The translations under genes and the position numbers were made by a program. This document shows positions 905 to 48,546 of a stretch of 64,000 bases of DNA, piece after piece. Source of the DNA: Chiloscyllium plagiosum. Taxonomy: Eukaryota. Position 1 is the first letter of the stretch, and every line of letters begins with the position of its first letter. The DNA lies in the NCBI RefSeq assembly GCF_004010195.1, contig NC_057758.1:8290956-8354955 (forward strand), in the 5' to 3' direction. The notes under the pieces are model-generated. The model worked only from the letters and a program-made list of their open reading frames with translations, did not search any database and was not told the origin of the DNA.

Positions 905-1330
905 CTATGATCATCAGTCGAGAAAACTGAATCCTTTCTAATGTGGCAATGCCATCAACACATCTAACACTTGTAATTTTCAATCTCCTACTGGACAGAA
1001 TTAGCGTTCTTAATACCCCAGTTTCATTCTTCGACATCACCCTTTTGTATGTATTCAGAGTTGTTGTGTTTCTTATGGCACTTCCCTGTTTTGTTCAGTT
1101 CACATTTGCTTTCCAATTTCATCGATCTTTAAGCATTTCTGGTCACATTTATACTCAAGATACGACAAGAAGAGAACAGCGACTGTGGTTATTGGATATT
1201 GCGAGTGCTGTCAATTGTTTACGCTTAATTCCTGATAACTTACATTTGAACCTTCTTATGTTATTGAAAATGTGTTTTAATGTTGCAACTGAACACCACA
1301 GTATTATTCCACTTTTTTCTGGACTATGAT
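905..1330 (+). pseudogene. GPR139-like GPCR pseudogene fragment (TM2-TM4)
   Basis: ORF 943-1329 AMPSTHLTLVIFNLLLDRI...CFVQFTFAFQFHRSLSI aligns with AMAASDLLVIILDLILRHL...CSVWFTAAFTFDRFVAT of the 37-kb copy; a shifted frame gives KRTATVVIG (cf. KTATIVLG). Confidence 0.65.
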
Positions 1331-1699
1331 TTCACTTTATTTTATTTTATTTTACGTATAATCCTGTGTAACTGAGCACAGTGAAAAGCATTTTTTGTGA
1401 ACAGCACACATATATCATCGTAATCAAGGATATGCAGATGATAGACTGAAAAAAACCTGGACAGATAAAGCCATGCATTTTACGACACACAAAACATATA
1501 CGAGGCAAGATCAAGATTAAAATGTTGAGCAATAATTGAAGTTAAAGACTTTATTCATCAGTCTAATAACAGCAGAAAAGAAGTTGCACTTGAACCAGTT
1601 AGTTCGTGTTTCCAAGCTTCTGTTTCTTCTGCCTGACAGAAACTGCTGCCAGAGAGCATTTCCGAGTCGCATGGGTCTTTAATGATGTTAGCAACGTCT

Positions 1700-2440
1700 C
1701 CATGGCAACGAGACTTGAGGATAGAGCCCATAAATCGGGGATTGGATTTCGTGATCGTCTCAGCTATGCACACATCCTTCTGTAGTTAATTTAGGTTCTG
1801 CGCAGAGCAGTTGCCATATCAGGCCGTTGTGCATCTGGCAGAATGCTCTCGATGGAGCAGCTATAATAGTTGGTGAGGGTTGTTTTGGAGAAGCCAAATT
1901 TCCTGCGCCGCCTGGGGAAGAAGAGACATTATGGCACCTTCTTGACTTTCCCATCTACGTGGAAAGTCCAGGACAGATTGTCGGTTATCATCATGCCAAG
2001 GAACTTGAAGCTGTCAAATTCATCAAACTCAACTCAGTTGATATAGATGGGTTTGTGTTCTCCTCTTCTTTTTTCTGAAATCTATTATCAGTACTTTAGA
2101 TTTGCCAACATTGAGAGACAGATTATTTTCATTGTACCACGTAAGAAAACCCTCGATCTCCTTTCTCTTTGCTGAGCTCTCATCATTGTATCACATCCTT
2201 CCTCGCGTGGACATGTCGTTAGCAAATTTGGAGATGTCGTTCATTCGGCAACACAGCCGTGGAAGTGCAGGGGATGAGGACCCATCTTTCGGGGCGCCAA
2301 TATTGAGAATTTTGACGGAGGAGATGCAGTGGGCTATCTTCTGGTCAGGAAACTCAGTTGGAAAACGTCGGGCCGAGGTCTGACCTCGGATTTTTCAGAT
2401 CTCTCTTCTTTGATAATGGTATTGAACGGAGAGCTTTCGT
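1700..2440 (-). mobile_element. Rex1/Babar-type LINE, decayed RT C-terminal fragment
   Basis: Minus strand reads DSFKFLGMMITDNLSWTFHVDGKVKK..LFFPRRRRKFG, typical of Rex1/Babar RT. Confidence 0.7.
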
Positions 2441-2449
2441 CAACATTAC

Positions 2450-2760
2450 AATTGTGAAAATATGACATATCTGATATTTTCTTTGCAACACAGAAATATC
2501 TAAACATTTAGTGTTCCCAGATTATCGAAAAAGAATGAGATTTTCATCAGCCACTTCCACATCTCTTTTAGTCTTTCTGAATTTCGCCATTTGTCCATGT
2601 AGTTTCCACCCCTATTTGTCAGTCTACTGTAAAGAAAAATTGTCAAAAGCTCAGAAATGGACTTCAACAAAACCTGGAACATGAATAGCAAATGGCTTAA
2701 GTAAGAACTCATCCGATGTTCGCAAGGATTTGAACTTGGCTTCGAGAAGACAAGCAATCA
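2450..2760 (-). pseudogene. decayed GPR139-like fragment (TM5-ICL3-TM6)
   Basis: LSHLLFMFQVLLKSI, then TNGEIQKD in a shifted frame (cf. SNGENQKD in the 47.5-kb copy), then KEM...ISFFFDNLGT. Confidence 0.4.
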
Positions 2761-3266
2761 TTGGCGAAGTAGGGCACATTTACTTACTTTATCAGAGCCA
2801 TAATTTGTTTGAAAACCTTACTTTCTCCCATATTCTGTCGAGTAATTGAAGAACTAACGAGAAAGCAGATGAGCATTAACTGTTCAAGCTTGCCTCATTA
2901 GAGAATTTGTTAACTTTACAATTCTTGACGTGACTTCTCACTAATTGCTGAGTGAACGAATTTGAAATTTCGTGCAAATTAATTAAAGAGCGAGTAACTG
3001 GACAGCAAACCTTCCGCCCAAAGTATTTACTACACTCAGAAAAACAGAATCATAAGCGCAGAACCCTTGCTCATGTAAAGTGATACACCGATTGAATAAT
3101 AAGATTAGGTGGCAGGCCAGCAATATTAGCAGATCACATTTAATCGTCAGACGCTTCAACAATTAAGAAGTAAGATTCTACAATCAAGTCAGTCTTTAAC
3201 ATTGGCTAGAATATATAAAATTCCAGTTAAATGACAATATGAGAATATTGCAGATAATGGAGATTG

Positions 3267-3515
3267 GAGCGACATGGTGGCTCAGAGGTAAATACTGCTG
3301 CATTGCAGCACCAAGAAACCGTATTCAAATCCAGTCTGTGTGGAATTTGTAGTCTCCTGCGTGTTCTGGTTTTCTTCCATAGTGGAAATATTCCCTGTTT
3401 TGATATACTGTGAAATGCGTGGTTTCGGTTGGTCTGCCCGGTCTGCCCAAAGCGGGTCGGTCTGGAGCTGATGGGCCGAATGACGTGTTTCCAGCAGTGT
3501 GGGCATTATATGATA
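3267..3515 (+). mobile_element. tRNA-derived SINE (HE1/V-SINE-like), diverged
   Basis: Head gcgacatggtggctcagaggtaaatactgctgc (A-box-like), tgtgtggaatttg core, tail gggccgaatgacgtgtttcca. Confidence 0.75.
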
Positions 3516-9180: not shown

Positions 9181-9199
9181 TCTGGATATTCCAAATGAA

Positions 9200-9830
9200 A
9201 TGGACAATTCATAGATTGAATGATCTTTAAAGGAATGATTCAACGTATTCAACTCCTCTCTGAACTTAGTCTGCATAACTGAGAAGTTGTAAAATGAAAC
9301 CCAATTCCAACATGTACCCATGTAAATTAACAGACTGAAATCCAAAATGATACATACTTTTTCAAATAGAAAACACCGTGAACATTGAATATAACAGATG
9401 AAATTGTTTCAGATAACAACGAGTAAAATGACGGATTTCCTTCGAATTTCAATCTCTGCATCTCGACAATTTTCTTCTCTGCTGTGATCCCTGAGACTCC
9501 TGCGGGCTCTAATTGTCACTAAATTGGCCTGTCAGAAAAAAACATTGAGCAAGAGAATCAGTGAAAATGGGAGAGTAAGGTGTGGAGAACACACTTGATT
9601 GTGACCGAGGCATGAGACAACGGAACATTGTTTTTATTACACCAAATCAGAGATTTTCAAAGGACAGCGTCGTAAATGTTCATACATGGTATGGAGAACA
9701 AGAAATAAAAAAAACGATAAATAATCAGAATGTGTCTCAATGTCCGGCCAAGGATAATGACCAGTAGATCTGACAGAAACATGACCACCTGCTTACGACT
9801 GACGCATGGAGACAATCCACAAGAGGACGG
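9200..9830 (-). pseudogene. GPR139-like GPCR pseudogene, internally deleted
   Basis: GLSPCVSRKQVVMFLSDLLVIILGRTLRHIL (TM2); IRARRSLRDHSREENCRDAEIEIRRKSVILLVVI (ICL3/TM6); QTKFREELN (helix 8); stops and indels. Confidence 0.85.
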
Positions 9831-10019
9831 CTTGTGTCGATATCAAGTTCTCCCATTGATTCTAAAAAGAAACCCAATAAAAGCGTTGATAGCAATTATT
9901 TAATTTTCCCTCTTCCTATTATTCAAGACAGATGTTTGAGGTCAGAACAAAGTCATCACTGTTTCAGCATGAGGTACAATGAAATATTTTTGGGATTAAT
10001 TTGATTTAATTCTCGGCAA

Positions 10020-13137: not shown

Positions 13138-13440
13138 GGGCGACACGGTGACACAGTGGTTAGCACTGCTGCCTCGCAGTGCCAGAGACCCGGGTTTAAT
13201 TCCCGCATCAGGTGACTGACTGTGTGGAGTTTGCACAATCTCCCTGTGTCTGCGTGGGTTTCCGCTGGGTGCTCCGGTTGCCTCCCACAGTCCAAAAATG
13301 TGCAGGTTAGGTGAATTAGCCAAGCTAAATTGCCTGTATTGTTATGCGAAGGGCTGAATATAGGAGAAGGGGTCTGGTGGTTCGATGTGGGCTTGTTGGG
13401 CGGAAGAGCCTGTTTCCACACTATAATTAATCTAATCTAA
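13138..13440 (+). mobile_element. near full-length tRNA-derived SINE (HE1/V-SINE-like)
   Basis: A-box ggtgacacagtggttagcac, B-box-like gggtttaattccc, core tgtgtggagtttgcac...ctcccacagtccaaa, (taatc)n tail. Confidence 0.9.
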
Positions 13441-13444
13441 CTGT

Positions 13445-14075
13445 CTGCATCTTGGAAATTGTGACATTCATCCCCTTGCTGCTAATCCTGTGTTTTCTAC
13501 GGGCTCTTTTTGCCGTTAAGTTATGTCTGAAATATACTGAATTAAAGTGCACAGTCAAAGGAGTTGTCAAACATAGGGTTAGAAGATGATTTCGACTGAT
13601 TTTGATTCCTCCAAAATCGGAAGTAAATTTAGAACCCATCGTACCTCAGAAAATTAAGGAGAGTTCTTTAACTAATACTGATTTGTTGACGTAAAATACG
13701 AAAATGTATTCTTTAAACAGCTCAGTGTCATCATTATTCCCAATACCACAGACGAAATGTTCTTATTACAGTATTCATGTGTCATTTTATGTCAACGGTT
13801 GGTTACAAATCGATTAAAAGCGAAAACGAACAATGAACCAGACAGAACAGTTCGTGGCTGCATGGACAAGGATAGCATGGGTATTGCACACAGGGAGGAA
13901 TTTCACAAACTGAAATTCTGACATCTAAACAATTGGAATGTGCATCAGTGTTAGGTCAAGGATTTTGACCAGTAGATCTGACACTTCCATGTTCGTTAGA
14001 TGCCACGTTGCACGTTTGGATAGACCGCATTCAGCCCGAGAAACGATTCCAATTGCCTGCGTGTTTAATGAGAGA
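13445..14075 (-). pseudogene. GPR139-like GPCR pseudogene (exon 2, TM1-ICL3; probable TM7 remnant at ~12760-12920)
   Basis: IGIVSRAECGLSKRATWHLTNMEVSDLLVKILDLTLMHIPIV; LPVCNTHAILVHAATNCSVWF; AKRARRKHR; decayed polypyrimidine acceptor upstream. Confidence 0.85.
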
Positions 14076-14799: not shown

Positions 14800-16796
14800 T
14801 ATGAGTGGTTCAGATTGTATCTTGGAATACGTGTACGGCTGCAGAAGATGGTGATATTTATCAAGACCCGTTCTTCAGTTCCTGGTTTAATTTCATTGTT
14901 TGATATGAAGGATGTGTGTGGAATTCCTCGAATTGAAAATCTGTCAACCACTGCCATTGTTCCTTCCCCACTTTTGAGCAGGCACTCAAATCTTATCTTA
15001 CATGCCAGAACGCTAATTTTCTGTCCGTCTGTGTGACAAATTACCAATATCCCAGGTAACAGATCCGAAACAGCACATAGTCGTTCATCTCTTATTATTG
15101 AGACTGCGTACATCGTGTGGAATTTCTCAAAATCATAAATTCTTGCCTTTACCCCTCCCGTTCTTTCTGAGTAAGCTTTACTCACAGATGAGGAGTATTT
15201 GTGGAGATCAGGAACTAACTCCTTACCCAGCCCGTGCCTCGGCTGTACATTCTCCTGCAGCTCCTCGATTTAAGTGCGGTTTCCTTTACTGCATTCACGA
15301 ATGATAGTGGCTTAGCCTTTTCTTTACCACGCCTGTTCCCACTCTGCCTTTCTTTAACGATAACCACTGTGATTTTACGTGTCCCACTTTACCACAAGGG
15401 AAACACCTGACGTTCCTTTCCACCCTTTTGGGCTTCTTTTCTTTTAACCTCTGTTAAATACTTACCAGTGTTCTCCAATTTTTTGTTTCGTAATGTAGTA
15501 TCACCCCGTCTCTCAACCCATATTCCTCACAACATGAAATTCTTTCTGGAAACATGTGTTATGCGCCATCGAGTTTTCACCTGCGTACTCTGCTGCTCTT
15601 CTCAATTCCTAAACTCTCTGCTCATCCATGTGGATTCTTAACTTTCTCTCGATGATTTTTTCAATTCAGCCAAAAGCACAATCTCCATTAGAGCCTCAGT
15701 GGTCTTATCCTTCTTGAAGGTCTGCATCCATCTATAAAAAGGGCTCAGCCTAATTGTTTCAAACTCAACATACGTCTGACCTGGTTCCTTCTTTATGTTT
15801 CTGAACTTGCTGTCTCTACGCTCCCGGTGCCAATTCATCAGCACCTAAGATAGTCTACATGGCCGCTCATCTGACTCGATGCAAATACCTCAAGAGCTCT
15901 GCCTGCCAGTTTGGTAAGAAATAGAATTACCTGTAATTCCTTGGACAACTCCACCTGCCTAGCCAACGTGTCAAATGAAATAAAGAAGGCTTCAACATCT
16001 TTCTTATCAAAATGTGGTCGCGCTTTAACGAATTTGCATACATTCCTGCGTGCTCTTTCAATGTCCAGCCTGTCAGCTTGACTTTGCTGAAATAGACACA
16101 ACTTCTCAATTTCAAATTTTGCCTCTTTATTCTGTCCCCCTTTATTCTCTCTCTCTTTCTCTGTCTATTTGCCCAGCTGAGAAACCCCTCTCTTTCTTTT
16201 TCCTCTTTCTGTCTCTCATCGCTCTCTTTTTTTCTGTCTTTCTCCCTCTTCTGTCTCCCTTTCTCTCTCCCTTTTATCCGTTTTCTCCCTTTGTTTATCT
16301 TCTAACTCCATTTTCCTCAATTGCAATTTAAGTTTTTCTAACTCCACTGCACTTGTCTGTTTCTCTGACACACCTAAGTGTTTGAATAATTCCCTTGCAA
16401 TTTCAGCTTTTTGTTTGTCCTAGGTTAAACGCAATTCTAATATTTTTGCTGATTCTAGAAGTAAGATACTTTTCTTTCCTTCAAAGACCTCATGACAAAT
16501 TTATACATCAGCTTTACGCCCCAGAACCTCCTTCGCAGATTAAAAGCCACTTCTCTCATTTAAATTGAAACAACCACAAATAACCGATTTTTTTTTTAAA
16601 GTCCCATCTATGTTTCATGCAATGATCTAGTATTCTGTCCAGCAAGTGTTCAAATCTACTGGGGTTTCGTTACACAAATCTATTCCAATTTGTCCAATTG
16701 TCAGATTGGCTCTGTCAAAAACGTTCAAACCAATTTGTCCAATTGTCAGATTGGCTCTGTCAAAAACGTTCAAATCCCAGACTACAGCACCGAAGC
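14800..16796 (-). mobile_element. Gmr1-type Gypsy element, 5' half (gag with SCAN-like capsid, protease)
   Basis: HFDKKDVEAFFISFDTLA, KFRNIKKEPGQTYVEFE, EIVLLAELK (gag); protease-like ORF 14772-15185; degenerate tRNA-Pro-like PBS near 16772-16795. Confidence 0.8.
16685..16774. repeat. 45-bp tandem duplication (2 copies)
   Basis: ccaatttgtccaattgtcagattggctctgtcaaaaacgttcaaa x2. Confidence 0.95.
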
Positions 16797-17470: not shown

Positions 17471-17479
17471 TCTTAAAAA

Positions 17480-20060: not shown

Positions 20061-20479
20061 ATTAGCCTATCCATAAGGAATATCCATTCTAAGGACTGCA
20101 GTGAAGTTTTCCCATATGAAAAAAGCCACTCTTCCTGCTCATTTCCCATCCCTTCTATCCTTCTTGCAGAATTTCGATCCTGGAATATTGAGCTTACTGT
20201 CTCATCCCTTCCACAAACATGTTTCTGTAATCACCATGACATTCCAGTTCTATATTGCCATCAATGCCCTGAGTTCATCTGCGCTACTTGTTAAGCCTCT
20301 TGCGTTTAATAACGAAATGCAATGAAATAAATATAGTTTAATTCATCACTCTTCCCCGTTACCCGCCAGTCTCTTGCCTGCTTTGTCTATTTAGCTTGCT
20401 CTATTTCAGTGCTCTACCAACATCAGCGTTATCTTTGTCTCTCTACTTCGATGTTACTCGATATCAGGTCATCATAAAA

Positions 20480-28872: not shown

Positions 28873-29051
28873 AGAGGACTCTGTACAGATTTGGGTAAAA
28901 TCACTTCAAAAGCAATAGACCCATTGTTTACTTCCTGATCAAAGGTTTTGGCTGATGAGAAATTCTATATATACTGAGGTCTACACTCAGTGCAATTCAG
29001 GAGATTCAGATCTCGTCTCATTCAAATATTTATAAGACAGTCAGAAAGTTA

Positions 29052-29168: not shown

Positions 29169-29169
29169 T

Positions 29170-29724
29170 TTGCTCTCAGTAAAATGTGCTTGAACGTGGG
29201 ATGGTTGAGCAGTAAGATAAGCAGAAATGGAAGACATGTCGTTAGTATACTGTGGAGGAACTCGACTACTGCCCAGATCAGAGAAAACTGAATATTGTCC
29301 ATTACAACACAAATCATGGAACGTTCATTCGCTGATACTGACTTGTTAATGCAAAGTACCAGAAAATGTTCCACATGCTGCTCACCGCAGTGACTGTTCC
29401 CGGACCACGGCGTTGTTTTCTATCTGTAATCATTACTTATCCGCTTCTGGCAACAAATGGCCACAAATCAATGAAAGTTGAATGTGACCGAGAACGAGGC
29501 AGTGCAGTCAGTTCCTGCAGAAAGCAGAACAGCGTGGATGTTACATATGGGCAGATCCAACAGGGAACGGAACGTTACTTGATAAAACATCAGCAGCTGC
29601 CTCAAAATAAGATGGAGAATAATGACCAGGAGATCAGAAACTGACGTAGCAATCAGATAACGTGTGATGCAAATCGAGAGACCACACCTTCTGCGAGACA
29701 GGACCTTAATTGTGAGAAGCTTAG
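29170..29724 (-). pseudogene. GPR139-like GPCR pseudogene (TM1-TM5), truncated at the short repeat
   Basis: IKVLSRRRCGLSICITRYLIATSVSDLLVIILHLILRQL; LPICNIHAVLLSAGTDC; WAVVEFLHSILTTCLPFLLILLLN; acceptor mutated to cacat; stops and frameshifts. Confidence 0.9.
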
Positions 29725-30239
29725 ATGTGAGGAAGGGAAATAGGCATGGTAATAATCACACAGTTTGATAATATAATACTTATCCAAATTAAGATTTACG
29801 GAATTGTGCCTAGTATTCATACAGTGCAAACATATTGATAAAGAACACGTGCATAATAAGAGGCTTATTGCCTCTCATGCTATTCTTCAGGCATCAGGAC
29901 ATGGAAAGCGGGAACAACAGGACATGGAACTTCTGTTCAGAGGGCAGCAACAGAATCGAATGGTGTACGTGATTTGATGTTCAGACTTTGAAGTGAAGAA
30001 CCATAACTATAGTTGGTCGTGTGTAGAGGCATTCAACCCAAATAATTCAGCATTTAAACAGTACACAATGCCTCCATTCTACCTCCTTCAAGTGCAGAAG
30101 CTTTCCTTTCCATGCATTGTATTTTGTTGATCAGTATTTTCTTTATTTGCTCACTCACAGAACCTGTCTTTGTGTCATCCAAAATTCTTGCTTTCCTAAA
30201 GGTTGTCCGAAAGAAGACAGCAAATGTTAGTGGATCGGA

Positions 30240-32639: not shown

Positions 32640-35600
32640 GGAAGAGCTGGAGCGTTGAGCAGGGGGCTGATGGGAGGATGGATCACAGGTTAAGATAGTT
32701 GCCTCATGAATAGGTGGAGCGTATGATGAACAGGAGCTAGCACGGATCTGCTAAGTAAGTGAAATAATATATTTTGGTGTTTCTTTACCCGAAATACGAC
32801 TTATGTCATGTCGCCCACTCATTCTCCTCCTCTAACCAAAAGAAAACTATATGTGGGCCTGATCTGTAAGGTAGGTTATTTTCTATTTTTCAGTCTCGTT
32901 GGGAATTTAGAATAGTAAAATGGTGGTTAGAGCAGTTGAGTGTTCCTTTTTCAGAATGTGGGAGTTAAGGGTCACCAGTAATGTCGCTGCTGAATTCATC
33001 TGCGGGACGCAACTCCATCTCCTCGAACGCCACGTTCGGGAACTGGAGCTGGAGCTAGATGAACTTCGGATCATTCAGGATTTGGAAAGCGTTATTGAGA
33101 GGTGTTAGTGGAAGGTAGTCAAACCTTAGGTGCAAGAAAAAGACAAACAGTTTACAGTGAGGAGATGGAAAGGGATCCGGCAGGCATTGCAGGTAATCCC
33201 TGTGGCCATTCCCCTCACTAGCAATATACCATTTGGATACGGTTGGGGGAGATTACCAGGGGTAAATGATGGGGTACAAGTCTCTGGCATAGAGTCTTTC
33301 CTTGTTGATCCCAAAGGAAGGGGGGAGATGAGCAGACCAGTATTCATTGAAGATTATAAAGTCTGAAGGACAGATAGTTGCTTTTGTGAAAACGAGAGAG
33401 TCTCATTTTAGTGTGTTTCCTCCCAGGTGCCAGCGTTCGTGATGTCTCAATCAAGTTTTCGACACCCTTCAGGGGGAAGGGGAGTACCCTAAGTAGTGGT
33501 CCACAGAGTTACTAACGACATAGGTCGGAAAAGGGATAGAGATTTATGGCAGGAATTCAGGGGTGTCAGGTGGAAGCTTAATGCTAGAACAAACAGAATT
33601 GTTATCTTTTTTGCCCCTGCCACATGCTAGCGAAGCGATAAATAGTGAGAGAGATGAGTTGAACCCGTGCAATAGGGATGGTGCAGGAGGGACGTTTTCA
33701 GATGTCTGGATAATTGGGGCTTATTGTGGGGTAGGTGAGACTTCTAATAACAGGATAGTCTTCACATGAACAAGTGGGGTACCAGGATCCTGGAGGTGAA
33801 CACTGTAATGTACTGTGTGAGCGTTTAAAGAAATTCAGCAGGGGAATGGAAATTTAAATTATAGTTCTAATATCCAGGAGGTTGTGAGAATTGAGGTTTC
33901 AAGGTCGCAAGAGTGCACCAGCAAGCATGAAGGTGGTTTGAACTGTGTCTACTTCAACATTCGGTGGATCCGGAAAAGCGCCATTGCTCTATCCATGTCT
34001 CCGGAATAGCACCTTTGTTTGGTACCTGTAACTTCGATGATGTCGCCATTTCGGAGACATGGATAGAGCCGAGACAGGGATGATTGTTTTAGGTTCCGGG
34101 ATTTAGATGCTTCAGTAAGAACAGAGAAGATCGTAAAAAAAAAGGGGCAGTGTGGCATTATCCAGCAAGGACAGCACTATGAGAACGTTTGAGAACTCGT
34201 CTACTGCAGTAGTATGGGGTGAGGTAACAAACACGAAAGGAGAAGTCAAACCTTTTCTCCAGGCCTCGGAATATTTCCAGAGATGTAAAAAAGTATAGCA
34301 AAGATAATTCTAGATAGGATCGAGAGTAACATTGTGGTTGTTATAGAGGCAATTAAATTTACAAATATTGACTAGTAAAAATGCAGTTCGAGTACTTGGT
34401 GATTTTTTGTCCACTGTGTGCAGCATGGTTTACTGACACAGCATGTAGACAAGCCTACAAGGGGCGATACTACATTGAATTTGGTTCAGGGTAATGCACC
34501 AGGCCAGGTGTTAGATTTGGAGGTTGGTGGGCACTGCGGTGATAGTAACCATAATTCGAATATATTAACTTTCGAGATGGAAAGGGCATGGTATATAAGT
34601 CAGGGAAAGAGTTATTGCTGAGATAAAGGCTAGTAAGATGAGATTAGGCAAGATTTACGGTATACAGGATGAAGGGAAATTGCATTGAAATGTGAAGCTC
34701 GTTCAATGAGCCACTCCTGCGTGTCCTTGATAGGTATGTACCTGTCAGGCAATGAGAAAGTAGTCAAGCAAGGGAGCCGTAGTTTACCAAAGAAGTTGAA
34801 TCTCTTGTTAAAAAGAAGCAGATTTATGTTATGATGAGATGTGAAGGCTCAGTTAGGGCGCTTGACAGTTAAAGGTTCCCCAAGAGTGAGCTAAAGAGAG
34901 AGCTAAGAAGAGCCAGGAGGGGACTTAAGAAGTCATTGGCAGACATGACCAAGGGCAACTCTAAACCTCGTTGTAAGTATATCAGGAAAAACTAATGACT
35001 AGAGAAAGCTTAAGGCTAATGAAGATAGTCGTGGGAAGTTGGGTGCGGAGCCCAAGGAGACTAGAGAAGCGCGAAATGAATATTTTTCCTCGGTATTCAA
35101 AAAGGAAAAAGACAATGTTGTCGAGGAGAATACTAACATACAGGCTACTACCCGAGACGGGATGGAAGTTCACATGGAAGATGTGTTTCCAATTCTGGAG
35201 AGTGCAAAAACAGATAGATCTCTTCGAACAGATGGGATCGATCATAGGCATCTCTGGGAAGCCCGTGAAGTTTTTCCTGAGTCTTTTGTTTTGAACTTTA
35301 TGTCGCCATTCTCGGCAAGAATACTGCCAAGAGTCTGGAGGATAGTAAATGTTTCTCCCTTGTTCAAGAAGAGACAATCCTGGTCATGATAGCCTAATGA
35401 AACTTACTTCAGTTGTGGGTAAAGCGTTGCAAAAGGTTATAAAAGTTAGGATTTGTAATCATGTCCAGAGGAATGAGTTCATTTGGAAACGTCAATACGG
35501 TTGTCTGAAGGCAATTTCATGCCTCACAGATTTTATTGAGTTCTTTGAGCTGGTGTGCAAACAGGTGGAAGAAGGTAAAGCGTTTGGTGTCATGTATATG

Positions 35601-36290
35601 TCTTTCAGTAAGGCGTTTGATAAGGTTCTCCATGGTAGAAGGTTGCGCAAAATATGGAGGCATGACATTAATGGTGATTTAGCTGTTTGGATAAGAAATT
35701 GACATGTGAAAGAAAACAGAGGGCGGTGGTTGATGGGAAACGTTCATCCTGGAGGTCAGTTACTAGTAGTGTGCCGCAACGATCTGTTTTGGTGCGTTTG
35801 CTATCTGTCATTTGTCTAAAGGACCTCAATGAGGACGAGAAAGGATGGGTTATTAAATTTGCGGATAACACTGATGCCGGTGCTGTTTTGGATGATGCTG
35901 AAGGATGTTGCAGTTTACAAAGGGACATAGATAAGCTGCAGAGCCTGGACTGAGAAGTGGTAGGAGATTTTAATGCGGAAAGGTGTGAGGTGATTCACTT
36001 TGCAACCAGCTGCTGTAGTAATGAGTACTGGGCTAATGGTAAGATTCTTGGAAGTATGGAAGAGTGATTTCGTTGTCCATGTACACAGACACTTGAAAGT
36101 TGCCACCCAAGTTGTTGGGTTTGTTAAAAAATCATACAGTTCGCTAGCTTTTATTTTTGGAGGGATTGATTTGCGGAACCATGAGGATATGCTGCAACTG
36201 TAGAAATCTCTGGTGGGGCCGTACTTGGATTGTAAACGTCGGCGCGGCATCGAGGTTCATCGGGCCTGTACTGCATTGTAATATTCTACA
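32640..36290 (+). mobile_element. near full-length decayed CR1 LINE
   Basis: ORF1 VECSFFRMWELR...LLERHVRELELELDELRII; EN LTQHVDKPTRGDTTLNLV; RT YMSFSKAFDKVLHGR, VPQRSVL, KFADNT. Confidence 0.92.
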
Positions 36291-36680
36291 TTTGTGTTTT
36301 TTTTTTGTGGAATTCACACTGCTTGAATGTGGTGAGAAGACGTAACAATGAGTAAATTAAAGTGTGTATGGATAAATGCATAATCAGCAACAGATTAAAG
36401 TATTGCAGAAAACAGGCAAAATAGTGGAATTGAGGCCTCGATGAGATCAGCCTTGATCGCAATAAATGGTGGAACAGCTTCAAGGGCCGGAATAGCGTCA
36501 CCAGTTTCTAGTTCTTATGCTGTTATGTTAGAAGTGACCGTAAGTATTGTAGTTGATTAAAAAAAACTGCAAAATGTTCTGGAACCTTATAAACGATGTT
36601 AAAGATCTTAGGTTCAGAAGCAGTTATCAAAAACCATTGCCAAACACTGGCACCCCTCTAAAAATGTTTTTCTCCTCTCA

Positions 36681-37576
36681 TTACAGACATTGAAGAATGA
36701 GGGTTAAGCGATATTTCAGCATATTGTTTAGCTGCTCTCTGAACTTACTCTGGGTCACGACATAGACACACGTGTTAGTGCAGCAGCTCAGGAGCTGCAA
36801 CATGAAACCCAGTCATTGCATATAATAAGGCATTAACACAGACCTGAAACCGAAATTAAAGATCCACATCCAAACAGAATAAATCATTAAAGTTGACCAT
36901 AACAAGATAAAGTTCACGGAAATGGCGAGGAGCAAAATGATGGATCTCCATCGTCTCTCCATCTCTGTGTCTTCGTGACTTTCATTATTGCTGGATGATC
37001 GCAGTCGCCTGCGGAATTTGCTGCTCGCTGAAATGTGTCTGACTGTGAAGATGTTGAACAGTAAAATCAGAAGAAATGGAATACATTATGTTAGTATGTT
37101 GTGCAGGAACTCGACTGATACCCAGACCGGAGAGTTCTGAACATAATCCATTGTAACATAAAACCACAGGAAGTTCATGTGTAGATACTTAGTCGTTAAG
37201 GCAAAGTACCAGAAAATATACTTTAAGATGCTCACCACGGTCACTGTTCCCAGAACTATGGTCGCTGTTTTCACAACGCAATACTTATTTCTCAGTTTCT
37301 GGCAACAAGTCGCCACAAATCGATCAAAGGTAAATGCGGCCGTGAACCACACAGAGCAGTCAGTTACTGCATAAAGCAGAACAGCATGGACGTTACATAT
37401 GGGCAGTTCCAGCAATGAATAAAATGTTCTTGGATAAAGGGTCGGCAAGTGCCTCAAAATCAGATCGAGAATAATCACCAGGAGATCTGAAGCTGCCATG
37501 GCGATCAGGTAAGTTGTGATACAATTCGAGAGACCGCATCCTCCGTGACTCAGAATCCTAATTGTGATTAAGTTAA
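36681..37576 (-). pseudogene. GPR139-like class A GPCR, complete large coding exon with two premature stops
   Basis: Acceptor cctcacAG|TT at 37578/37576; one frame of ~297 codons NLITIRILSHGGCGLSNCITTYLIAMAASDLL..FTFDRFVATCCQKL..LT*CIPFLLILLFN..EMERRWRSIILLLAISVNFILLW..MQ*LGFMLQLLSCCTNTCVYVVTQSKFREQL; premature stops at 37086-37088 and 36813-36815, terminal TAA at 36681-36683; exon 1 not found. Confidence 0.93.
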
Positions 37577-37657
37577 CTGTGAGGATGTGAAATAAACACG
37601 GTGAGAGTACATCAGGCTGGAAAATATAATCAGTTCGAATGAGGATTTAGAAAACTT

Positions 37658-37790
37658 GTTCTGAGTCAGGATCACCGGACCTGAAACGTTAACTTTGATT
37701 TCTCTTCACAGATGTTGTCAAGCTTGCTCAGCTTTTCAAAAAGCTTCTATTTAAGTTTTTGATTTATGATATCCGCAATTAGTTCCCTTT
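37658..37790 (+). mobile_element. Penelope pLTR-derived short repeat, third family (decayed)
   Basis: ctgagtcaggatcaccggacctgaaacgttaac..cagatgttgtcaagcttgctcagc; related copies near 49312-49460 and 49583-49680. Confidence 0.6.
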
Positions 37791-38189
37791 TTACTAATTG
37801 ATCTGTGTTAATTATTGACGCAGGACAAACATATTGAAAAATAAAAATTGCATTGTAAAAGGGAAATTGTCTTCCAATGTGTCATCCAGGGTTTCAGAAG
37901 TAGAAAGTGCAGTTAACAAAACAGTGAAACACTATGAAGCTGTGGGTAGTGTTGGCATGGGGCGAAAAGAATCAAATGGGATGACTGTAGATTATTTCAT
38001 GGACAGAATTCGAAAGCAGAGAGGTGTAAATAAATTAACTACAATGTAGTGGCATTCAACCATGCAGTTCTCTATTTAAGTGGTATACAGTTCCTCCACT
38101 CCACCTTCTAATAACTGCAGAAACTCACATTCCCTCAAATTATATTTGGTCAGTTTGGATTTTCAGACTCGGTGAATCTACACCTGTAG

Positions 38190-39430
38190 CAAAAGTGACG
38201 ACTGAAGTTGCTGCAGATTTGAGTCAAGATTAGAGTGGCATTGGAAAAGCGCAGCAGGTCATGTAGCATCCGAGGAGCAGGAAAATCGACATTTCCGGCA
38301 GGAGCCCTTCATCAGGAATGAGGCTGAAAGCCTCGGGCATGAAGAGATAAATGGGAGAGCGTGGGGCTCAGGAGAAGCTAGTTGAGAGTGCAATAAGTGG
38401 ATGGAAGAAGGGGTAAATGTGATAGGTCGCAGAGGAGGATGGAACGGAGAGGTGGGAAGAAAGATTGACAGGTGGGACAAGTCATGAGGATTGTGCTGAG
38501 CTGGAGGTTAGGAACTCGGGACAGGTGGGGAGGGGAATTGAGGAAACTGGTGAAAGTCAGGTTGATGCCCTGGGTTTGAAGGGTACTGAGGCAGAAGATA
38601 AAGCGTTCTTCCTTCAGGCGTCGCGTGGTGAGTGAGTGGCGGTGGAGGAGGCCCACGACCTTCATGTCCTCTGTGAGGTTGATTGCTGCAGGTGTCCCGG
38701 AGATGTTCCCTGAAGCGCACTGTGAGAAGGCGCCCAGTGTTGATGCCCTGGGTTTGAAGGGTACTGAGGCAGAAGATAAAGCGTTCTTCCTTCAGGCGTC
38801 GCGTGGTGAGTGAGTGGCGGTGGAGGAGGCCCACGACCTTCATGTCCTCTGTGAGGTTGATTGCTGCAGGTGTCCCGGAGATGTTCCCTGAAGCGCTCTG
38901 TGAGAAGGCGCCCAGTCTCCCCAATTTAAAGGAGACTACATCGGGAGCATCTCATGCAATAAATGACCTTTCCGCAAATGCAGGTGAAACTTTGATGGAT
39001 GTGTCAGGCTCCTTTGGGGCCTTGCATCGTGGTGAGGGGGAGGTGTTGCAATTTTGCAATGCCTGCAGTGGCAGTGGAAGGTGGCGGGGGGAAGGATGTT
39101 TGTCGAGGGACATGGACCTGATTAGGTATTCACCGAAGGAAAGGTCTTTGCAGAAAGCAGATTGGAGTGGGTATGGAAATATATCCTGGTAGTGGGGTCT
39201 GTTTGTGGTGACGGAAATGCCAGCAAATGATACGGTTTATGTGGAGGTTGGTGAGGGTGGAAGGTGAGGACAAGGTGGTTCTGTCCTTGTTATTGTTGGA
39301 AGGATTGAGCACTAAGTGCGGGACGTGGATGAGATGCGTTGGAGGGCATCTTCAAACACGTGAGTGTGGAAATTACAGTCTACAAAGAAGGATACCAACT
39401 GGTGCGTTCTCTCGTGGAAGTGGTCCTCCT
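38190..39430 (-). mobile_element. 5'-truncated Penelope-like element (RT C-terminus, GIY-YIG endonuclease, pLTR with hammerhead core)
   Basis: IGETGRLLTERFREHLRD and RRLKEERFIFCLSTLQTQGIN (GIY-YIG domain); terminus attc-CTGATGA-agggctcctgccg-GAAA-tgtc-gatt. Confidence 0.88.
38561..38916. repeat. 178-bp tandem duplication inside the Penelope endonuclease region
   Basis: 38561-38738 and 38739-38916 are nearly identical. Confidence 0.95.
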
Positions 39431-39559
39431 TTGCGTCATTCTCTTCCCTTCCTTTATGCTCTGTTTTTTTGCCAATAAGATCGTTCACATTATCATTGCC
39501 GTGCCTTATCGTTAAATCCTTGTTTCCAGGAGAGTAATCTTAAATACTCTTGACATTAC

Positions 39560-40490
39560 TGACTCAGCAGTCGACTATCATGAAGAATAACAACATCAGG
39601 TTGGTGTCGAGGAACGTTGCAGAGAACGCGTTCCCTCCTGAATCATTCCCAAATTCTGTTCACTATCTACAAGGCACAAGTAGTCAGGTGTGTATTGGAA
39701 TACTCACCACTTGCTTGGATTTGTTCCAGCCCAACAAAACGGAGACTCCTCTATACTTCTTCACACTACTCCTTAACTGGCACTGCATTCACACAGGTCC
39801 TCTCATGCAACATAAGACAGCAGTGAGTACTATCTACACTGTAATACCAAACAAACCCACGATCAGTAAAATCAAGAAGGACACAGGCAGCAGATACTTC
39901 GAAACGCAAGGATGCGGCATGATGGCTTAATGGTAAGTACTGGTGCCTTATCGTGCAAGGTCGTCGAGTTCCACTTCCGGATTGGGCGACTGTTTGTTTG
40001 AATTTTTCACAGTGTCCCTGCATTTGTGTGTGTCCCGTCTGGGTGCTCCGCTTTCCTCCCACAGTCCAAGTATGTTGTCCTTTGGGTGAATTAGCCATGC
40101 TATATTGACCATGATGTTCACGGATGTGTAGAGTAATTGCATTCGGTTTGGTAAATATCGAGTAGGAAAGCAAGTCCAGTTGGGGCACGCTTCAGAGAGT
40201 CAGTGTGGACTTGTTGGGCCAAATGACCGCTTCACACACTGCAGCAATTATCTGACAGCATATTTTTCACAATTTCCTCACTGAGTCACTCACCAGCTCG
40301 ACTGGAAAATATCATTTTTCCTTTAATGTCGCTGCATCAATTCCTGGAAATTCCTCCCCAAGGACATGGACTATAACATTTCAGAAATGTTCTGACACTG
40401 AGTAACCAGGGGTGGGCAATAAATGTTGGACTGGCCAGCGACGAACGTGTCCCATGTGTGAAGGAAAGAAAAGTGAAGTCTTAAAAAAGA
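39560..40490 (+). mobile_element. old CR1/L2-group LINE 3' end, interrupted by a SINE
   Basis: SQILFTIYKAQV..VLEYSPLAW; 3' UTR gggcaataaatgttgg at ~40415. Confidence 0.7.
39913..40255 (+). mobile_element. tRNA-derived SINE (HE1/V-SINE-like)
   Basis: gcggcatgatggcttaatggtaagtactg head; ctcccacagtccaa core; gacttgttgggccaaatg tail. Confidence 0.85.
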
Positions 40491-40769
40491 TTGTTTGCCC
40501 TTTACTGATCTGGTCTCTCTCTTGTAGGATGTTTGCAATCGAGACCACTGCTTACATCACATCACTGATAAACCAAGGTAGCCTAATAACACATCAATTC
40601 ATTCGGTCAAACATATAAACTGGTTGGAATAGTTTTTCTTTTAATTGCTGACAATAATTAAAGAGTCATGATGAGATGAACATTTCCCTTTAGTCCTTCA
40701 TCGAATTCAAATATCACCTTGATACCATGAATCGCAGACTACTTGTGTGAAGTTACAACAGGTAATAAT

Positions 40770-43700
40770 TAGGGAAATTGCCATTTCTAGCGTTCATTGT
40801 TGAAAAAGAACCATAAAAGGAGGGAAACGTTGCTTCATCTGGAGAAGACATTTGTGAGACTGCACCTGCACTATTGTGCTCAGTTGTGCTCCTCTTCATA
40901 GATCAGGGATGTGATTACATGGGAAGCACTAAAGAGGGGGATTCACTCAATCAGAAATGGCAGGCTTTTCTCGCAAGGAGCTTTAGGGGAGTACAACTGC
41001 ATATACTCTGGACTTTACAAGAATCAGAGGAGGCCCATTTTTGGTTCGGAAAATGCGAAGTCAGACGGACAATGTAAGCTGGGAGGCAATGTTTCAACTT
41101 TTGAGACGATCTGGAAGGATAGGTGGTGTTTTTGGTCGAATGGGAAACAAATCTTTAAAGTCGGTGGTGAGTACTTCGTTTTTAATGGGTTTTGAATTCG
41201 TGGAGTATACTCTTCCAGAGTGCAGTGGGTATTAGGGCACTGACTGAATTTAAGAAAGATATTGACATCCCTTTAATGAGCAATTAGTCAAAGGGAACTG
41301 GCATGAAAGTGGAATTGTGATCGAAATTACGTCAGCTATGATTAAGTTAAATGGTCGACCAGGCATAAGAGGCTGAATGGCCGACACCTGGCCAACTTCA
41401 CAAGATCGTTGTGAGTTTCGAGTCCTTGTCTATTGATCATAGGTTTAGGTTCTGGATGATTTGATTTCTGACATTGGCAACTTATCAGCGCATACCAAGT
41501 TGAGACAACTCTGGAACAGAGCTAACAATAAAAAATAATGTCTGTCGGAATTCCGATTTTGATTTTTAAAAAAAAGTCGGAATGTTTGAAATGGGCAGCG
41601 GATGAGGAGATTGGGCTTCATATAAATGCAGAAGTATTAATGGAAATTTCAACATTGAGGAAGTGACATGCTGTGAAAGAGCGTGGACGAGTGAACACCA
41701 TGCTGATGGGACGGTGGCGTTTGTTTCATAACACTTTGCTCATGCATCTTTCGAACTAGAAAGTGACCAGCTGAGAATGTGAAGAGGTGAGTTTGAGTTT
41801 ACTGCTGAGGAAGCCGGTGACAATTTGCTGATGGGGAATATATGAGATGACTTCACCTCTGTGAAGTCCCAGTCTCTTGCTATCGCACTGATTTCTGGGA
41901 TCGCAGGATTAACGTGTCAAGAGACACTGCCTCGATGAGGACTGCATCGAATGGAGTTTGGAAAAATGGGTGTGTGTGGGCAGATCGGGGCAGATCTCAT
42001 TGAAACCTCATACGAACACTTGGAGTAGGACAAGATATGGTGAGTGCTGGAAGGATGTCCCTGTCACAGGCTAATGATAAATTGTAGAACTGAGATGAGG
42101 AGGGACAGGTTCACCAAGTCAGAGACGAACCTTCAGAATTCCCTGCTATAGAAAGATGATGAGAACAAAACACTGAATATCTCATGAAGCAGTTGGATAG
42201 TGTTATTAACCCGAAAAGATCAAAGGACAAGGGAGAACGTGAAAAAGTGAGACTAAGTTGGATGTTCAGTCATGATGACACGGAATGGTGGATCAAGCTG
42301 GGATGGCCATTTGATAGACTGCTTCTATTCTTCTCCCTTTTTTGATATTTATCATTTAAAACAAAAAAAAAGTGAAGGTGGCACAGTCTGTTTCAAACTC
42401 ATGCTATGATGTAGCGGAGTCAATAGTCAGGCAATAGATCTTGCATGCTGCTCTGAAGCAGACAGCTTTGATCTTCGAAAACCTAGCTGGTCAAGGCGAT
42501 ACGAGTCGAGTTTTACAGACTGATGTACGAATATTGTTACATGACATTGGCACCACCGAATTCAACAAATTCCGCCTGTGCTTCAAAAAACTGGATATAT
42601 ATGCCCAATTTCCGGATATAGAGGGTCAACAAAAGAAAGGGGAAAGCTAACTCGGAGATTGGGATCGTAATGACAAACGATCATAATAAGTGGAAAGTAC
42701 GAAAAGATACCAAGAGAGACTCCTGAAATGCATTGTAACATTCCAGTGCATTGTAACATTCCAGTGCATTGTAACATTCCAGTGCATTGTAACATTCCGA
42801 TGCATTGTTTCCAGATTCTTATCCATTGCAGGTATATTCTAATCCTTTGTTTTCAGATTCTGAACCATTCTCATAATGGTCCAATCGATTTTCCTCAGCT
42901 TCTCATCACTTATTGTGAAGTTCCAGTCTCTTGCTTTAAGATCTGATCACATTCTCTTTCTCTCTCAAACTCGCTGTCCTTCTCGTTCTCTCTAGAATCA
43001 CCGCTGACTCGAGCTGCAGAGACGATGCTCCTACGACAATATGGAGGACTTCAGTAAAAAGAATGACATTTTCTAAAATCAGAGAGTCAGCCTCCAGAGA
43101 CACTGTTCAGTGCCGCAGAGACTGATGATACTTGGAATGTTTGAAATAATAGATTTGCTTTAACCCCTTCGCTTCATCATAATTTGGACCATAGAAAGGA
43201 ACATTTACTCATTCTGGACAGGATACGGACTAGTGATGTTCAATGAAGGGATGCTGACTGAACATTATCGGTCAATACTGCCTGTATGTTAGAGAGTAGT
43301 GGCGAAGCCGTTGTGGACTCCAAGTGGCACACAGTGCTTTCCAAAGTAGGCATATGCAAGAACTAGAATTCTTCCCGTGTCAGTATGAATGTTGCTGTGA
43401 GGAATTAGATAGGAAAATAGTTGTTCATTACCAGGAATCCGTGGTAGAACACTTAGATCAAAATGAGGAAAAGCTTGTTCATTAAGAGCGGCAAGCGTGT
43501 GAAATTCCATGCCACAGAAGGCAGTTGGGGTCGAAACATTGAACGTTATGAAGAAAGAGTTGTCGAAAGACCTTAGGATTAAACTGAGCAAAACCAGGGG
43601 GATAAAGTGAAAAAAGAAGTATGAGCGAGATGATCAGCGTTATTATGGGAGAAAAAAATAAAAGTGCCGAATGTTCTCCTAGTGCTCTAATTTTCTATTT

Positions 43701-44200
43701 TCATATACAATTGGTCATCTGACACAAGGCAGAGCTGTGTCAGTTGAGTGCAATTTCAGCATCGCAGACTGCAACCTACAGTAGGGACGCAAAGACGAGT
43801 TCTGGAGCCATAATTATTTCATACATATATTTTATATGCAGTAACTCGTAGAAAAGCCAACAGAAAGGCAGGTAGCGAGGATGACAAAAATTGTCTGCAG
43901 AGGGATAGAGATAAATTCGCTGTGTGGGAAAAACAACTTGCTGATGAAATGTAATGTGGGATAATGTGAGGTAATGCACATTGGCTGGAAGCATCGAGGA
44001 AATGCCTAGTATTTAGAAGAAGGAAGACTGCAGAAAGCTACAAAATGAAATTATTCGACCGTCCATCTGCATGAATTACAAAAAGAAAGTCCAGTATCCA
44101 AGATTATGTGGAGAATAGGGAACACAAATAATTTGTTGGTCTTTATTTCAAAAGAAATAGATTGCAAAGGTAGGGAGGTCCTCCCGTTCACGCTTTTCGC
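40770..44200 (+). mobile_element. mosaic of old CR1 3'-end fragments
   Basis: Several decayed RT/3' UTR pieces at about 40770-41410, 41900-42330, 43250-43700 and 43870-44200. Confidence 0.6.
42729..42808. repeat. 18-bp minisatellite (~4.5 copies)
   Basis: (tgcattgtaacattccag)n. Confidence 0.95.
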
Positions 44201-46290: not shown

Positions 46291-46299
46291 AACTTTGAA

Positions 46300-47330
46300 C
46301 AAAGAACATGAACAAAGAACCAAGAAAACAATAGGACAGGAACAAGCCTGTGCCAATCCAGATCATCTACCGAAACCTGTCACCTATTTTCTCAGATTCT
46401 GAATCCATTTGCCCGCTGCCCATTCATGTGTAACTGACTCTATTGTACAAACCACAACCACCTCTGCTGGCAACGTGCTCGAGATACCCATGACCCTATG
46501 CATAAGGAATTTACCACGTACATTTCCTCTGAGTTTAATCCTCTCAATTCGAACTCGTGACCCCAAATAATTGAGTCGTCCACTCTGGGAAAGAAAAAAA
46601 AAAGTTTCTTTGATCCACCATGACTGTACATCTCGTGATTTTGTAGACATCAATCACGTACCAGCCCAAACCTCCGTCTTTCCAAGAAAAATAATCTTAA
46701 TCTAATCAATGTCTGTGCATAGCCAGATTCCTCCATCCCCGAAACATTTCAGTGAACCGTCTCTGCACCCTTTCTAAAACATCTACATTATTTTGATAAT
46801 GTGGTGACCAGAACTGAACACAGTATTCCAAATATGGACGAATCAAAGTCTCATGCAACTGTATTATGAACTGCCAACTCTTATAATCATTACCCCGTCC
46901 GATGAAGGAAACATGTCGGATGCCTTCTTGGTCAATCTGTTGTCCTGTGACGCCACCTTCAGTGAATAATGGGCCTGAACACCCAGATGTCACTGTACAT
47001 CAATTTCCGCAAGGAATTTTCCATGTATTGCATATTTCGTTCCTGAATTGGATCTTCAAAAATGCATCATTTTGCACATGCCCGGTTTAAAATACCTCTG
47101 CCACTTCTCTGCCCAACTTTCTCATCCGCCGATACGCTGCTGCATTCTCTGACAGGCCACTTGACTGACTGCTCGACAAACAATCTTCGTCTTAACTGCA
47201 AGCTTGCTAATCAGATGACCTGTACATTTTTCCAAATCATTCATGCATATCACAAACTATGTTCCCAGAACGGATACCTGTGAAACACCACTGGTCACAG
47301 GTCACCATGTTGCAGAACTCGCTTCCACCA
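46300..47330 (-). mobile_element. CR1 LINE 3' end
   Basis: LIRPYLEYCVQFWSPHYQNNVDVLERVQRRFT; (gaacaaa)n tail at ~46300. Confidence 0.88.
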
Positions 47331-47339
47331 ATTCCTGCA

Positions 47340-47720
47340 CAAAGTAATGTAAATACTTTGTGTGACACTCTAAACCATATATCCATGTAGAATTCACCAT
47401 TAACCTTGACTAGGACAGGTTAAAATTGACTGAGATGACGTACAGAGAAACGATGTTTATTTTTCTTAGCATTCCCGTGTCTTTCTGATTCTCCCCATTG
47501 CTATGAGGCCGGATTCTCCACTATGCTCCACTGATAATTAATAAGTGTCGGTGACGGTGAAACCATTAAGCAGTATCTTCAGGAGAAATGGAAGAATCCG
47601 AATTAAAATCTATTGAAGGAACGAGATTTTGACCGAGACCCGAGAGCATTTCACAGCAGTTTCTTTCTCACAAAATCAGAAGAAGTTCGCCACTTGTACA
47701 TTCGAATTTTGGTTACTGAA
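47340..47720 (-). pseudogene. GPR139-like fragment (TM5-ICL3-TM6)
   Basis: ILPFLLKILLNGFTV..RIRPHSNGENQKDTGM..IVSLYVISVNFNLS. Confidence 0.75.
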
Positions 47721-47899
47721 ACTGAATGAACACTGTTTCGAAAACAAACACGTTCAGGTTTTTACTCTAATCTTCTGTCTTATGCCACTCTCTAATCAAT
47801 CATGATCATTTGCAATGCTTCTCGATTTTTTCTCCCATTCATTTACCCATTCACGACTGAAGCATTTTTCAGGAAATCTGGTTAATCTGTGCGTGGGCT

Positions 47900-48546
47900 G
47901 GCTTCATCTGCGAGCATAATGCGCATAATTCTCCGTTTCAGAAAGCACAGTCAGAATGAAACAGTTTCTCAAAAGTAACAACATCTGGATTACCATATGA
48001 TCCACGGGGGAACTGGCACGTTCGGTTTAAAATTGAGACTACGTAGAAAGGTAACAGCATCTCGACATGCATGTGGACAAATATTGATTTTTCCACCGAT
48101 AAAGTTTACTTTGAATAATCACAGTATTCCGGTTCTCTTTCTTCCGAACGATTTGTATAAATGATCCCAATGCAGGTAAGATAATTTAGAATCGAATAAA
48201 CCGAATAACGTGTCATTTCTTCAGAATATTGTGACGGTAGGAATTTGTATTGACGTTCTGTCCACATTGTCATCTTGGTTGGTGTAATTGATAACTTAAT
48301 GTACTTCTGCAGTGTATGGCTAAGAACTGCTTTCATTGCCCGAATGGGAAAAAGAAGCGTCCAATATGCTTTGAAAGAGTGTAAAACCAACACAAAGAAT
48401 AATGATCTCAACTGGAACACAGTAAACAAAAGAATGCGACAAAATTTCAACACTTTTGACAGCATAAAAGTTTCAAGTTCACTGAACTTTTGTAAGCACA
48501 ATTCTCTTTGGGAAATTTGAACACAATGAGACAAATGGGTAAACAT
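47900..48546 (-). pseudogene. possible highly decayed GPR139-like fragment
   Basis: ORF 48106-48546 segment KFLPSQYSEEMTRYSVYSILNYLTCIGII weakly parallels QKLRNKYCVVKTATIVLGTVTVVSILKYI of the 37-kb copy. Confidence 0.3.

Follow-up and report, generated by a model that had tools for sequence, protein, structure and literature searches.

The window analysed here, a stretch of 64,000 nucleotides from the shark Chiloscyllium plagiosum (contig NC_057758.1), contains between positions 188 and 51648 eight broken copies, seven clear and one weak, of a single family of rhodopsin-type G protein-coupled receptors (GPCRs). None of them is intact, as every copy exhibits stops, frameshifts or both, and the decay is graded from copy to copy (Table 1). 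The window copies thus produce no receptor. Five copies belong to one subfamily (subfamily I) and the copy at 50.9 kb to another one, being the sister of a whale-shark protein in the tree described below (support 100/99). The copy at 0.9 kb sits on a long branch, grouped with another subfamily, and its placement is unsure; it probably represents a third subfamily, so that the window would span at least two and likely three of them.

Table 1. Remnants of the receptor family in the window. TM, transmembrane helix; ICL and ECL, intracellular and extracellular loop.
Position	Strand	Feature	Lesions and ends	Support	Frameshift-aware profile score (interval)
188..322	-	Weak family remnant (ICL1-TM2), head-to-head with the 907..1337 copy	1 stop	Weak; broad-profile score 32 vs background <=24; tblastn E 0.008	
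907..1337	+	Heavily decayed copy (TM2-ECL2), not subfamily I	3 frameshifts, 2 stops	Score 77; tblastn E 1e-10	49 (943-1196)
9184..9935	-	Subfamily I pseudogene exon 2, TM1-TM3 piece and TM5-helix 8 piece, three frames	At least 3 stops, 1 frameshift	tblastn E 5e-19	111 (9278-9576)
13436..14074	-	Subfamily I pseudogene exon 2, TM1 to ICL3	4 stops, 2 frameshifts; acceptor AG replaced by AT; 3' end truncated by interspersed repeat 13157-13438	tblastn E 4e-34	192 (13436-14071)
29174..29731	-	Subfamily I pseudogene exon 2, TM1 to TM5 end	1 stop, 2 frameshifts; acceptor AG replaced by AT; truncated by repeat 29053-29165		246 (29177-29722)
36681..37576	-	Best-preserved copy, complete exon 2, mid-TM1 to C-terminus, single reading frame	Premature stops 37086-37088 and 36813-36815; no frameshift; ECL2 cysteine lost	tblastn E 5e-113, 62% identical to whale-shark member	523 (36684-37580)
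42550..42952 (lower end approximate)	-	Exon-1 remnant, N-terminus and TM1 start	Frameshifted; no canonical donor seen	tblastn E 1e-13 to family N-termini	
47323..47753	-	Subfamily I pseudogene, ECL2 to TM7	3 stops, 1 frameshift	tblastn E 8e-18	88 (47329-47675)
50930..51648	-	Second-subfamily pseudogene, TM3 end to helix 8	3 stops, 2 frameshifts	Score 156; tblastn E 6e-33	102 (50951-51567)

The scores of the seven clear copies compare with scores of 14-19 for a control of 12 reversed 1.5-kb segments. A tblastn search with 231 family proteins yielded no match at E<0.01 in the reversed window, and with 404 family proteins at E<0.05 there were 2971 matches in the window and two in the reversed one. 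A scan of the whole window revealed no further family copy above background. The original prediction, made from the letters of the window, had assigned six intervals to one family without any intact member. All six were recovered by family profiles or tblastn, with controls that were nearly empty, and align to one family profile, and each copy indeed carries stops and/or frameshifts. The graded decay that had been claimed is also borne out: 121 of 145 near-invariant columns are kept in the 36.7 kb copy and 29/38, 70/100, 60/109 and 22/41 in others, which corresponds to 83, 76, 70, 55 and 54%, compared with 89-100% (median 97%) in 98 database members. The interval at 905-1330 is a family member as predicted; it lies, however, on the plus strand, belongs to a different subfamily and lacks the motifs quoted for the group. 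About three additional weak copies had been proposed; 42659-42952 is an exon-1 remnant and no separate copy. The cluster is moreover not confined to 905-48546, as the clear copy at 50930-51648 and the weak one at 188-322 lie beyond this range.

The gene layout comprises two exons. In the 36.7 kb copy the acceptor of a phase-1 intron, an intact pyrimidine-rich AG, ends at 37577, and exon 2 starts inside the codon preceding the TM1 asparagine. By position and strand, the exon-1 remnant is most likely exon 1 of this gene, which would give an intron of about 5 kb. With acceptor and exon-1 remnants being kept, and with the 13.4 and 29.2 kb copies being truncated by repeats (which occur again within the window), the copies are therefore DNA-level tandem duplicates; processed retrocopies are ruled out by the preserved acceptor context and the upstream exon 1. 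The N-terminal exon (window 42716-42943; P0103, P0248) contains a tandem repeat coding for N-x-T (N-V-T) glycosylation sequons. The count of N-x-T motifs varies between 0 and 8 in a set of 120 proteins of subfamily I, i.e., the stalk is glycosylated and of variable length.

Over aligned codons, the DNA identity among the copies is 45-73%, the 29.2 kb copy being the nearest paralogue of the 36.7 kb copy (73%), and the synonymous divergence (dS) ranges from 0.5 to >2. Ten copy pairs were tried for the ratio of nonsynonymous to synonymous divergence (dN/dS), of which one was too short and one saturated; seven of the eight pairs with a value gave 0.23-0.65 and one 0.83. Because of this identity, this dS range and a dN/dS mostly between 0.2 and 0.65, the copies can be regarded as old paralogues that died at different times. 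A single recent burst of duplication is ruled out by the dS values, and the window does not demonstrate the rapid evolution that had been proposed. Within the window, copies were lost through stops, frameshifts, loss of splice sites and repeat insertion. A recoded stop in the 36.7 kb copy is ruled out, as there is one TAA and one TGA plus other lesions; each of these stops is two bases away from the residue of the family consensus. When positions 36250-37750 were compared at 80% likeness with two same-label public runs (X1 and X2, kind unrecorded), near-exact pieces were present for 36250-36442 (0 differences), 36250-36682 (1) and 36885-37070 (0), together with many 80-87% pieces across the coding part, so that the 36.7 kb locus is present in these runs alongside paralogues. 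The two stops received no independent confirmation from them, the one at 36813 being covered in X1 and X2 by paralogue-like contigs only and the one near 37087 exhibiting the window letter in only about 15 of 171 of the X2 depth. From the single-cell run X5 (2% read, source tissue unrecorded) none of 149 reads was 99% alike and 146 were partial fits, which says nothing about expression. Run X7 gave one 123-base record, 80% alike, whose RNA status is a guess.

Intact family members pass the Pfam 7tm_1 cut-off, and the 36.7 kb copy is matched by this family in both halves below the cut-off. A structural model of the member P0006 exhibits seven TM helices and helix 8 (predicted local distance difference test score, pLDDT, 84), and its nearest folds are peptide GPCRs (TM-score 0.6-0.8), although this search cannot separate GPR139 (rank 6) from other peptide receptors. 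The class A hallmarks N1.50, D2.50, D/E-R-Y/F, P5.50, W6.48, N-x-x-x-Y7.53 and the TM3-ECL2 cysteines are present. Among 194 members (117 + 77), D2.50, C3.25, the DR of DRF, P5.50, N5.58, W6.48, N7.49 and Y7.53 are kept in 93-100%; P6.50 and P7.50 are mostly absent. No match to the Pfam families of OR, TAAR, V1R or T2R was found for the window pieces or for 18 members, and the nearest Atlas clusters are GPR139-like and FMRFamide-receptor-like.

On sequence grounds, the family is class A but it is not GPR139. Human GPR139 is the best PDB sequence match of the family profile (E 1e-13, about 20% identity; a phmmer search of PDB with the first half of the best-preserved copy gave no match), yet it scores only 54 bits against this profile compared with up to 597 for members, and proteins from amphioxus (95-106 bits), coelacanth (162) and salamander (174) rank above it. 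For comparison, GPR139 of human and zebrafish are 70% identical (PMC7318219). As far as the six pocket residues of GPR139 can be mapped by eye, subfamily I keeps the equivalents of H187 and W241 and has Y/F for F109, whereas E108 is replaced by L, R244 by L/F and N271 by F; three of six thus differ, and other subfamilies vary. GPR139 is also a single-copy gene, and the family has eight copies in 52 kb and 99 clusters in one species. GPR139 and GPR142, class A orphans activated by L-Trp and L-Phe, form the nearest characterised relative, which responds to aromatic amino acids and peptides; this group is sister to protostome W/Y/F-amide peptide receptors, and the wider group binds amidated aromatic peptides (PMC8557429). 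Gq coupling and expression in habenula and striatum are further traits of GPR139.

Many full-length members are found in databases. In the horn shark Heterodontus francisci there are at least 99 distinct clusters at 90% identity, each of which covers TM1-TM7 and has no X, followed by at least 33 in Heptranchias, 18 in Pristiophorus, 16 in Stegostoma and 11 in Rhinoraja. These numbers are lower bounds, as they derive from 241 species-labelled proteins, automatic gene models that were the best matches listed; 233 of them are full-length from TM1 to TM7 in one piece, none of these with X. Members are spread over many chromosomes and scaffolds. Fused or wrong first exons occur in many database models, and 8 of 18 long models scanned carry an unrelated neighbour or other non-receptor domains, namely integrin alpha-X-like, TRIM, sodium channel, Ig/FN3, uromodulin-like, hemopexin, trypsin and one coiled-coil-like domain (fusions to unrelated neighbours: P0020, P0184, P0199, P0265, P0226, P0133 and P0198). 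The fused models probably arose in annotation, pointing to loci that are dispersed and poorly backed by RNA.

A profile search over 1.84 billion representatives yielded 133 proteins at E<1e-30. The 30 representatives looked up by name came from sharks, skates, rays and, with two proteins, Callorhinchus, then from salamanders, coelacanth, teleosts and amphioxus. In a maximum-likelihood tree of 49 proteins (LG+G4), all chondrichthyan proteins are united (95/90) and sister to a clade of amphibian and sturgeon proteins (100/99), with coelacanth and teleost genes outside of this pair and amphioxus further out. Neither GPR139 nor GPR142 was represented in the tree; among PDB entries, GPR139 is the best match of the coelacanth and amphioxus proteins as well. 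Some subfamilies are common to sharks and rays with full support. Single-species clades occur too, with 8 members in horn shark (support 97), 8 in sawshark (93) and 4 in sevengill shark (100). A 60-member horn-shark clade (support 40, biased sample) was given no weight. According to the trees, the family has duplicated repeatedly, starting before the split of sharks and chimaeras. The proposal of a lineage-expanded birth-and-death family distinct from true GPR139 agrees with all of this, except that the system is not elasmobranch but chondrichthyan, as the two Callorhinchus proteins fall inside the radiation. We consider it very probable that the window samples an unnamed chondrichthyan class A multigene family with a birth-and-death history.

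The sister gene in amphibians and sturgeon (the P0233 clade), annotated as 'probable GPR139', is low-copy. A salamander query gave 25 hits from 1675 candidates, namely 20 amphibian clusters, each from a different species, one sturgeon and four elasmobranch hits. No amniote or teleost sister gene was among these 25 hits, and the profile search added no amniote among the best 120 of 256 listed; the absence elsewhere is provisional because the searches depend on shared words. The amphibian and sturgeon receptor (P0233, P0278-P0297) is 66-74% identical across frogs, salamanders and a caecilian. In amphibians it keeps a GPR139-like polar pocket with F3.33, W6.48, K6.51 and N7.39.

Pocket and G-protein face evolve differently in the two groups. 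Among 95 elasmobranch proteins, which were chosen independently of the window query, the pocket (24 positions) has an entropy of 2.26 bits, the G-protein face (19 positions) 0.46 and the other outer TM positions 1.64 (contrasts: p 2e-7 and 0.003). The opposite ranking holds for 22 amphibian orthologues, with 0.04 in the pocket, 0.23 at the G-protein face and 0.45 at other outer TM positions. For pairs in the same class of whole-protein identity (60-70, 70-80 or 80-90%), the pocket is 48, 65 and 72% identical between shark proteins and 96, 99 and 99% identical between amphibian ones. As pocket positions were numbered by counting from anchors and not from coordinates, single assignments may be off by one. 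The subfamily I pocket contains the charged residues D2.57, R2.61, D3.37, E5.39, R6.59 and E7.36. This pattern suggests a putative ligand-diversified receptor repertoire. Because the motifs and the G-protein face are fixed and the pocket is rewritten, each subfamily may recognize a different ligand and share one G protein.

The most likely history starts from one ancestral two-exon gene, a distant cousin of GPR139 and GPR142 that stayed low-copy in amphibians and sturgeon and was multiplied many times in cartilaginous fishes. The ancestral receptor might have had an aromatic amino acid or a peptide as its ligand, with the copies moving to different ligands while keeping a common transducer. 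Copies were probably lost continually, and the window is one cluster with every member dead. Among vertebrates, class A families with as many as 100 copies and clusters of pseudogenes are mostly chemoreceptors (OR, TAAR, V1R, T2R), and the hallmarks of such repertoires, a clustered multigene family, pseudogenes, a diversified pocket and a conserved signalling face, are all found here. There is about an even chance that the intact members are chemosensory, with a candidate role in detecting water-borne or luminal amino-acid or small-peptide cues in a sensory epithelium; the olfactory organ, taste buds, skin, or sensory cells of gill or gut would be candidate sites. A narrower and rather doubtful version is that they form a fifth vertebrate olfactory receptor family, which would have evolved independently, would be expressed in sparse olfactory neurons of cartilaginous fishes and would outnumber all of their known olfactory receptors taken together. 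Several points weigh against a chemosensory role. The variability of the pocket is divergence and no proof of positive selection; the invariant pocket of the amphibian orthologue suits one fixed, perhaps endogenous ligand; several of the fused neighbours are of immune type; and the catshark nose is reportedly dominated by V2Rs, with no GPCR among its 50 most specific brain-plus-olfactory genes (PMC11979771). A skate supplement lists two 'probable GPR139' loci, which may or may not belong to the family, as markers at 1.4-1.5% of nuclei (PMC13694853). These were rejected as expression evidence, as this is noise level. For one of them the adjusted p is 1 and in situ staining gave 'little or no expression'; the second stands in a top-ten list mostly at 1.4% and probably reflects a single nucleus. 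No mention of the family was found in one short supplement file of PMC10529500, in four of five files of PMC11589584 or in eight files of PMC13188829. A link to electroreception was rejected because frogs keep the sister gene.

Among the alternatives, the one that survives best, although unlikely, is that the receptors act as sentinels of the immune system or of barriers, comparable to formyl-peptide receptors (FPRs) or MRGPRs, i.e., leukocyte or epithelial receptors for microbial or damage peptides diversified by host-pathogen conflict. A variable pocket with a fixed signalling face fits this equally well, the charged pocket residues of subfamily I suit peptides, and integrin alpha-X-like, TRIM and uromodulin-like domains are among the fused neighbours. 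One skate locus with a 'GPR139' annotation, whose membership in the family is unverified, gave a signal in 'a few scattered cells' when an embryo was sectioned (PMC13694853). However, other fused neighbours such as the sodium channel are non-immune, so that the loci are simply dispersed. FPR and MRGPR families also rarely reach 100 intact copies, which counts against this idea.

Less probable still is that the receptors diversified to read endogenous peptides or reproductive signals from conspecifics (neuroendocrine, sperm, oviducal gland), comparable to the protostome receptors for MIP/sex-peptide, proctolin and myosuppressin. The polar GPR139-like pocket in amphibians, the fold being nearest to peptide receptors and the sister relationship of GPR139/142 to the protostome W/Y/F-amide receptors (PMC8557429) speak for it. 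Frequent loss of whole clusters, such as that in the window, would, however, be unusual for hormone receptors. Against it also counts that we know of no matching expansion of peptide genes.

A largely neutral expansion, in which segmental duplication within repeat-rich regions would have spread a single functional gene or a few of them and most models, predicted by homology, would be silent or dying, is very improbable: all eight window copies are dead, annotation pipelines can skip lesions, and thin RNA support is suggested because many models have wrong or fused first exons, but the 233 full-length proteins without X, signalling motifs that are 93-100% conserved across subfamilies only 40-60% identical, subfamilies shared with full support by sharks and rays, and dead copies that diverged with dN/dS mostly at 0.2-0.65 argue against it.

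The window also contains various repeats. Positions 20017-23004 and 23001-25989 form a head-to-tail 2.99-kb duplication (98.7% identity) of decayed retroelement sequence, which is either a very recent duplication or an assembly artefact. A 729-base direct repeat (26915-27643 and 28144-28872; 97.4%) flanks a 500-N gap (27644-28143) and is probably the same sequence assembled twice. An inverted 3.5-kb duplication (90.7%) links 52079-55544 and 60539-64000, with one copy starting at a gap (60039-60538). At 57201-59079, an inverted 426-base repeat (95.5%) around a short gap overlaps a 236-codon open frame (57360-58070, minus strand), which on visual inspection looks like the final part of a Penelope-type retroelement protein and has no Pfam match; within the inferred intron, positions 38561-38916 hold a related piece that includes a 178-base tandem repeat. 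The GC skew is opposite in two long blocks (about -0.25 at 15000-27000, then +0.2 at 29000-44000), which probably stem from co-oriented remnants of long interspersed nuclear elements. No tRNA genes were found in the window.

Full-text literature searches, which did not reach most subscription papers and bioRxiv supplements, found no description of GPR139-like genes being expanded in cartilaginous fishes, and in the passages of PMC10620051 that were covered the words GPCR and receptor are absent. Neither the family nor its likely descent from the peptide-receptor branch nor the low-copy sister gene in amphibians and sturgeon appears to have been described. Hidden under a wrong automatic GPR139 name, the family lies outside the six families covered by chemoreceptor surveys. 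Cartilaginous fishes reportedly have 20-62 complete OR, TAAR, V1R and V2R genes in total, the fewest among vertebrate groups (PMC10869828). This small olfactory repertoire is a puzzle given their olfactory organs, and the family is a candidate to revise it; if a fifth olfactory family existed, it would explain large olfactory organs with only 20-62 recognised receptor genes. If the receptors were immune instead, they would make up a set of innate receptors that has gone unrecognised in the oldest lineage of jawed vertebrates. In both cases, a gene of the peptide-receptor type would have turned into a large variable repertoire, with a low-copy orthologue in frogs and salamanders as a tractable orphan for identifying the ancestral ligand. 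The window itself adds pseudogenes only.

A GPCR repertoire under birth-and-death evolution is a well-known kind of system. Compared with the amphibian and sturgeon receptor, its direct sister, the shark family shares the ICL3-TM6 motif, but the pocket of the former is invariant, and it has S at 1.50 and N at 2.50. With GPR139 it has the two-exon gene, motifs of TM1, TM2 and the end of TM3 and the lack of a proline after N7.49 in common, and the GPR139 intron is presumably at the same codon in TM1 as that of the family. The two exons of GPR139 are documented in PMC7318219. In contrast to the human GPR139 chain, which has no cysteine atop TM3, the family contains the TM3-ECL2 cysteine pair, and about 100 copies stand against one. 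The orphans 'GPR210A/B' of coelacanth, gar and teleosts were placed under GPR139/GPR142 by Rinne et al. (2019; PMC6504862); in that paper, 'shark' is absent from the main text and amphibians are missing from the GPR210 sets. P0238, P0244, P0264 and P0269, proteins of coelacanth, teleosts and related fishes that come next outside the clade of shark, amphibian and sturgeon proteins, are probably GPR210A/B, their Ensembl ids being unmatched; they differ from the shark family by their separate branches, S at 6.48 and low copy number. With OR, TAAR, V1R/ORA, T2R, FPR and MRGPR, the family shares tandem clusters, pseudogenes, lineage-specific expansions and a coding sequence that lies mostly in one exon, as well as a variable pocket combined with a fixed inner face. 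It differs from them in having no sequence kinship beyond class A, with 7tm_1 and occasionally Srx/Srw as its only Pfam matches, and in being probably derived from the peptide-receptor branch.

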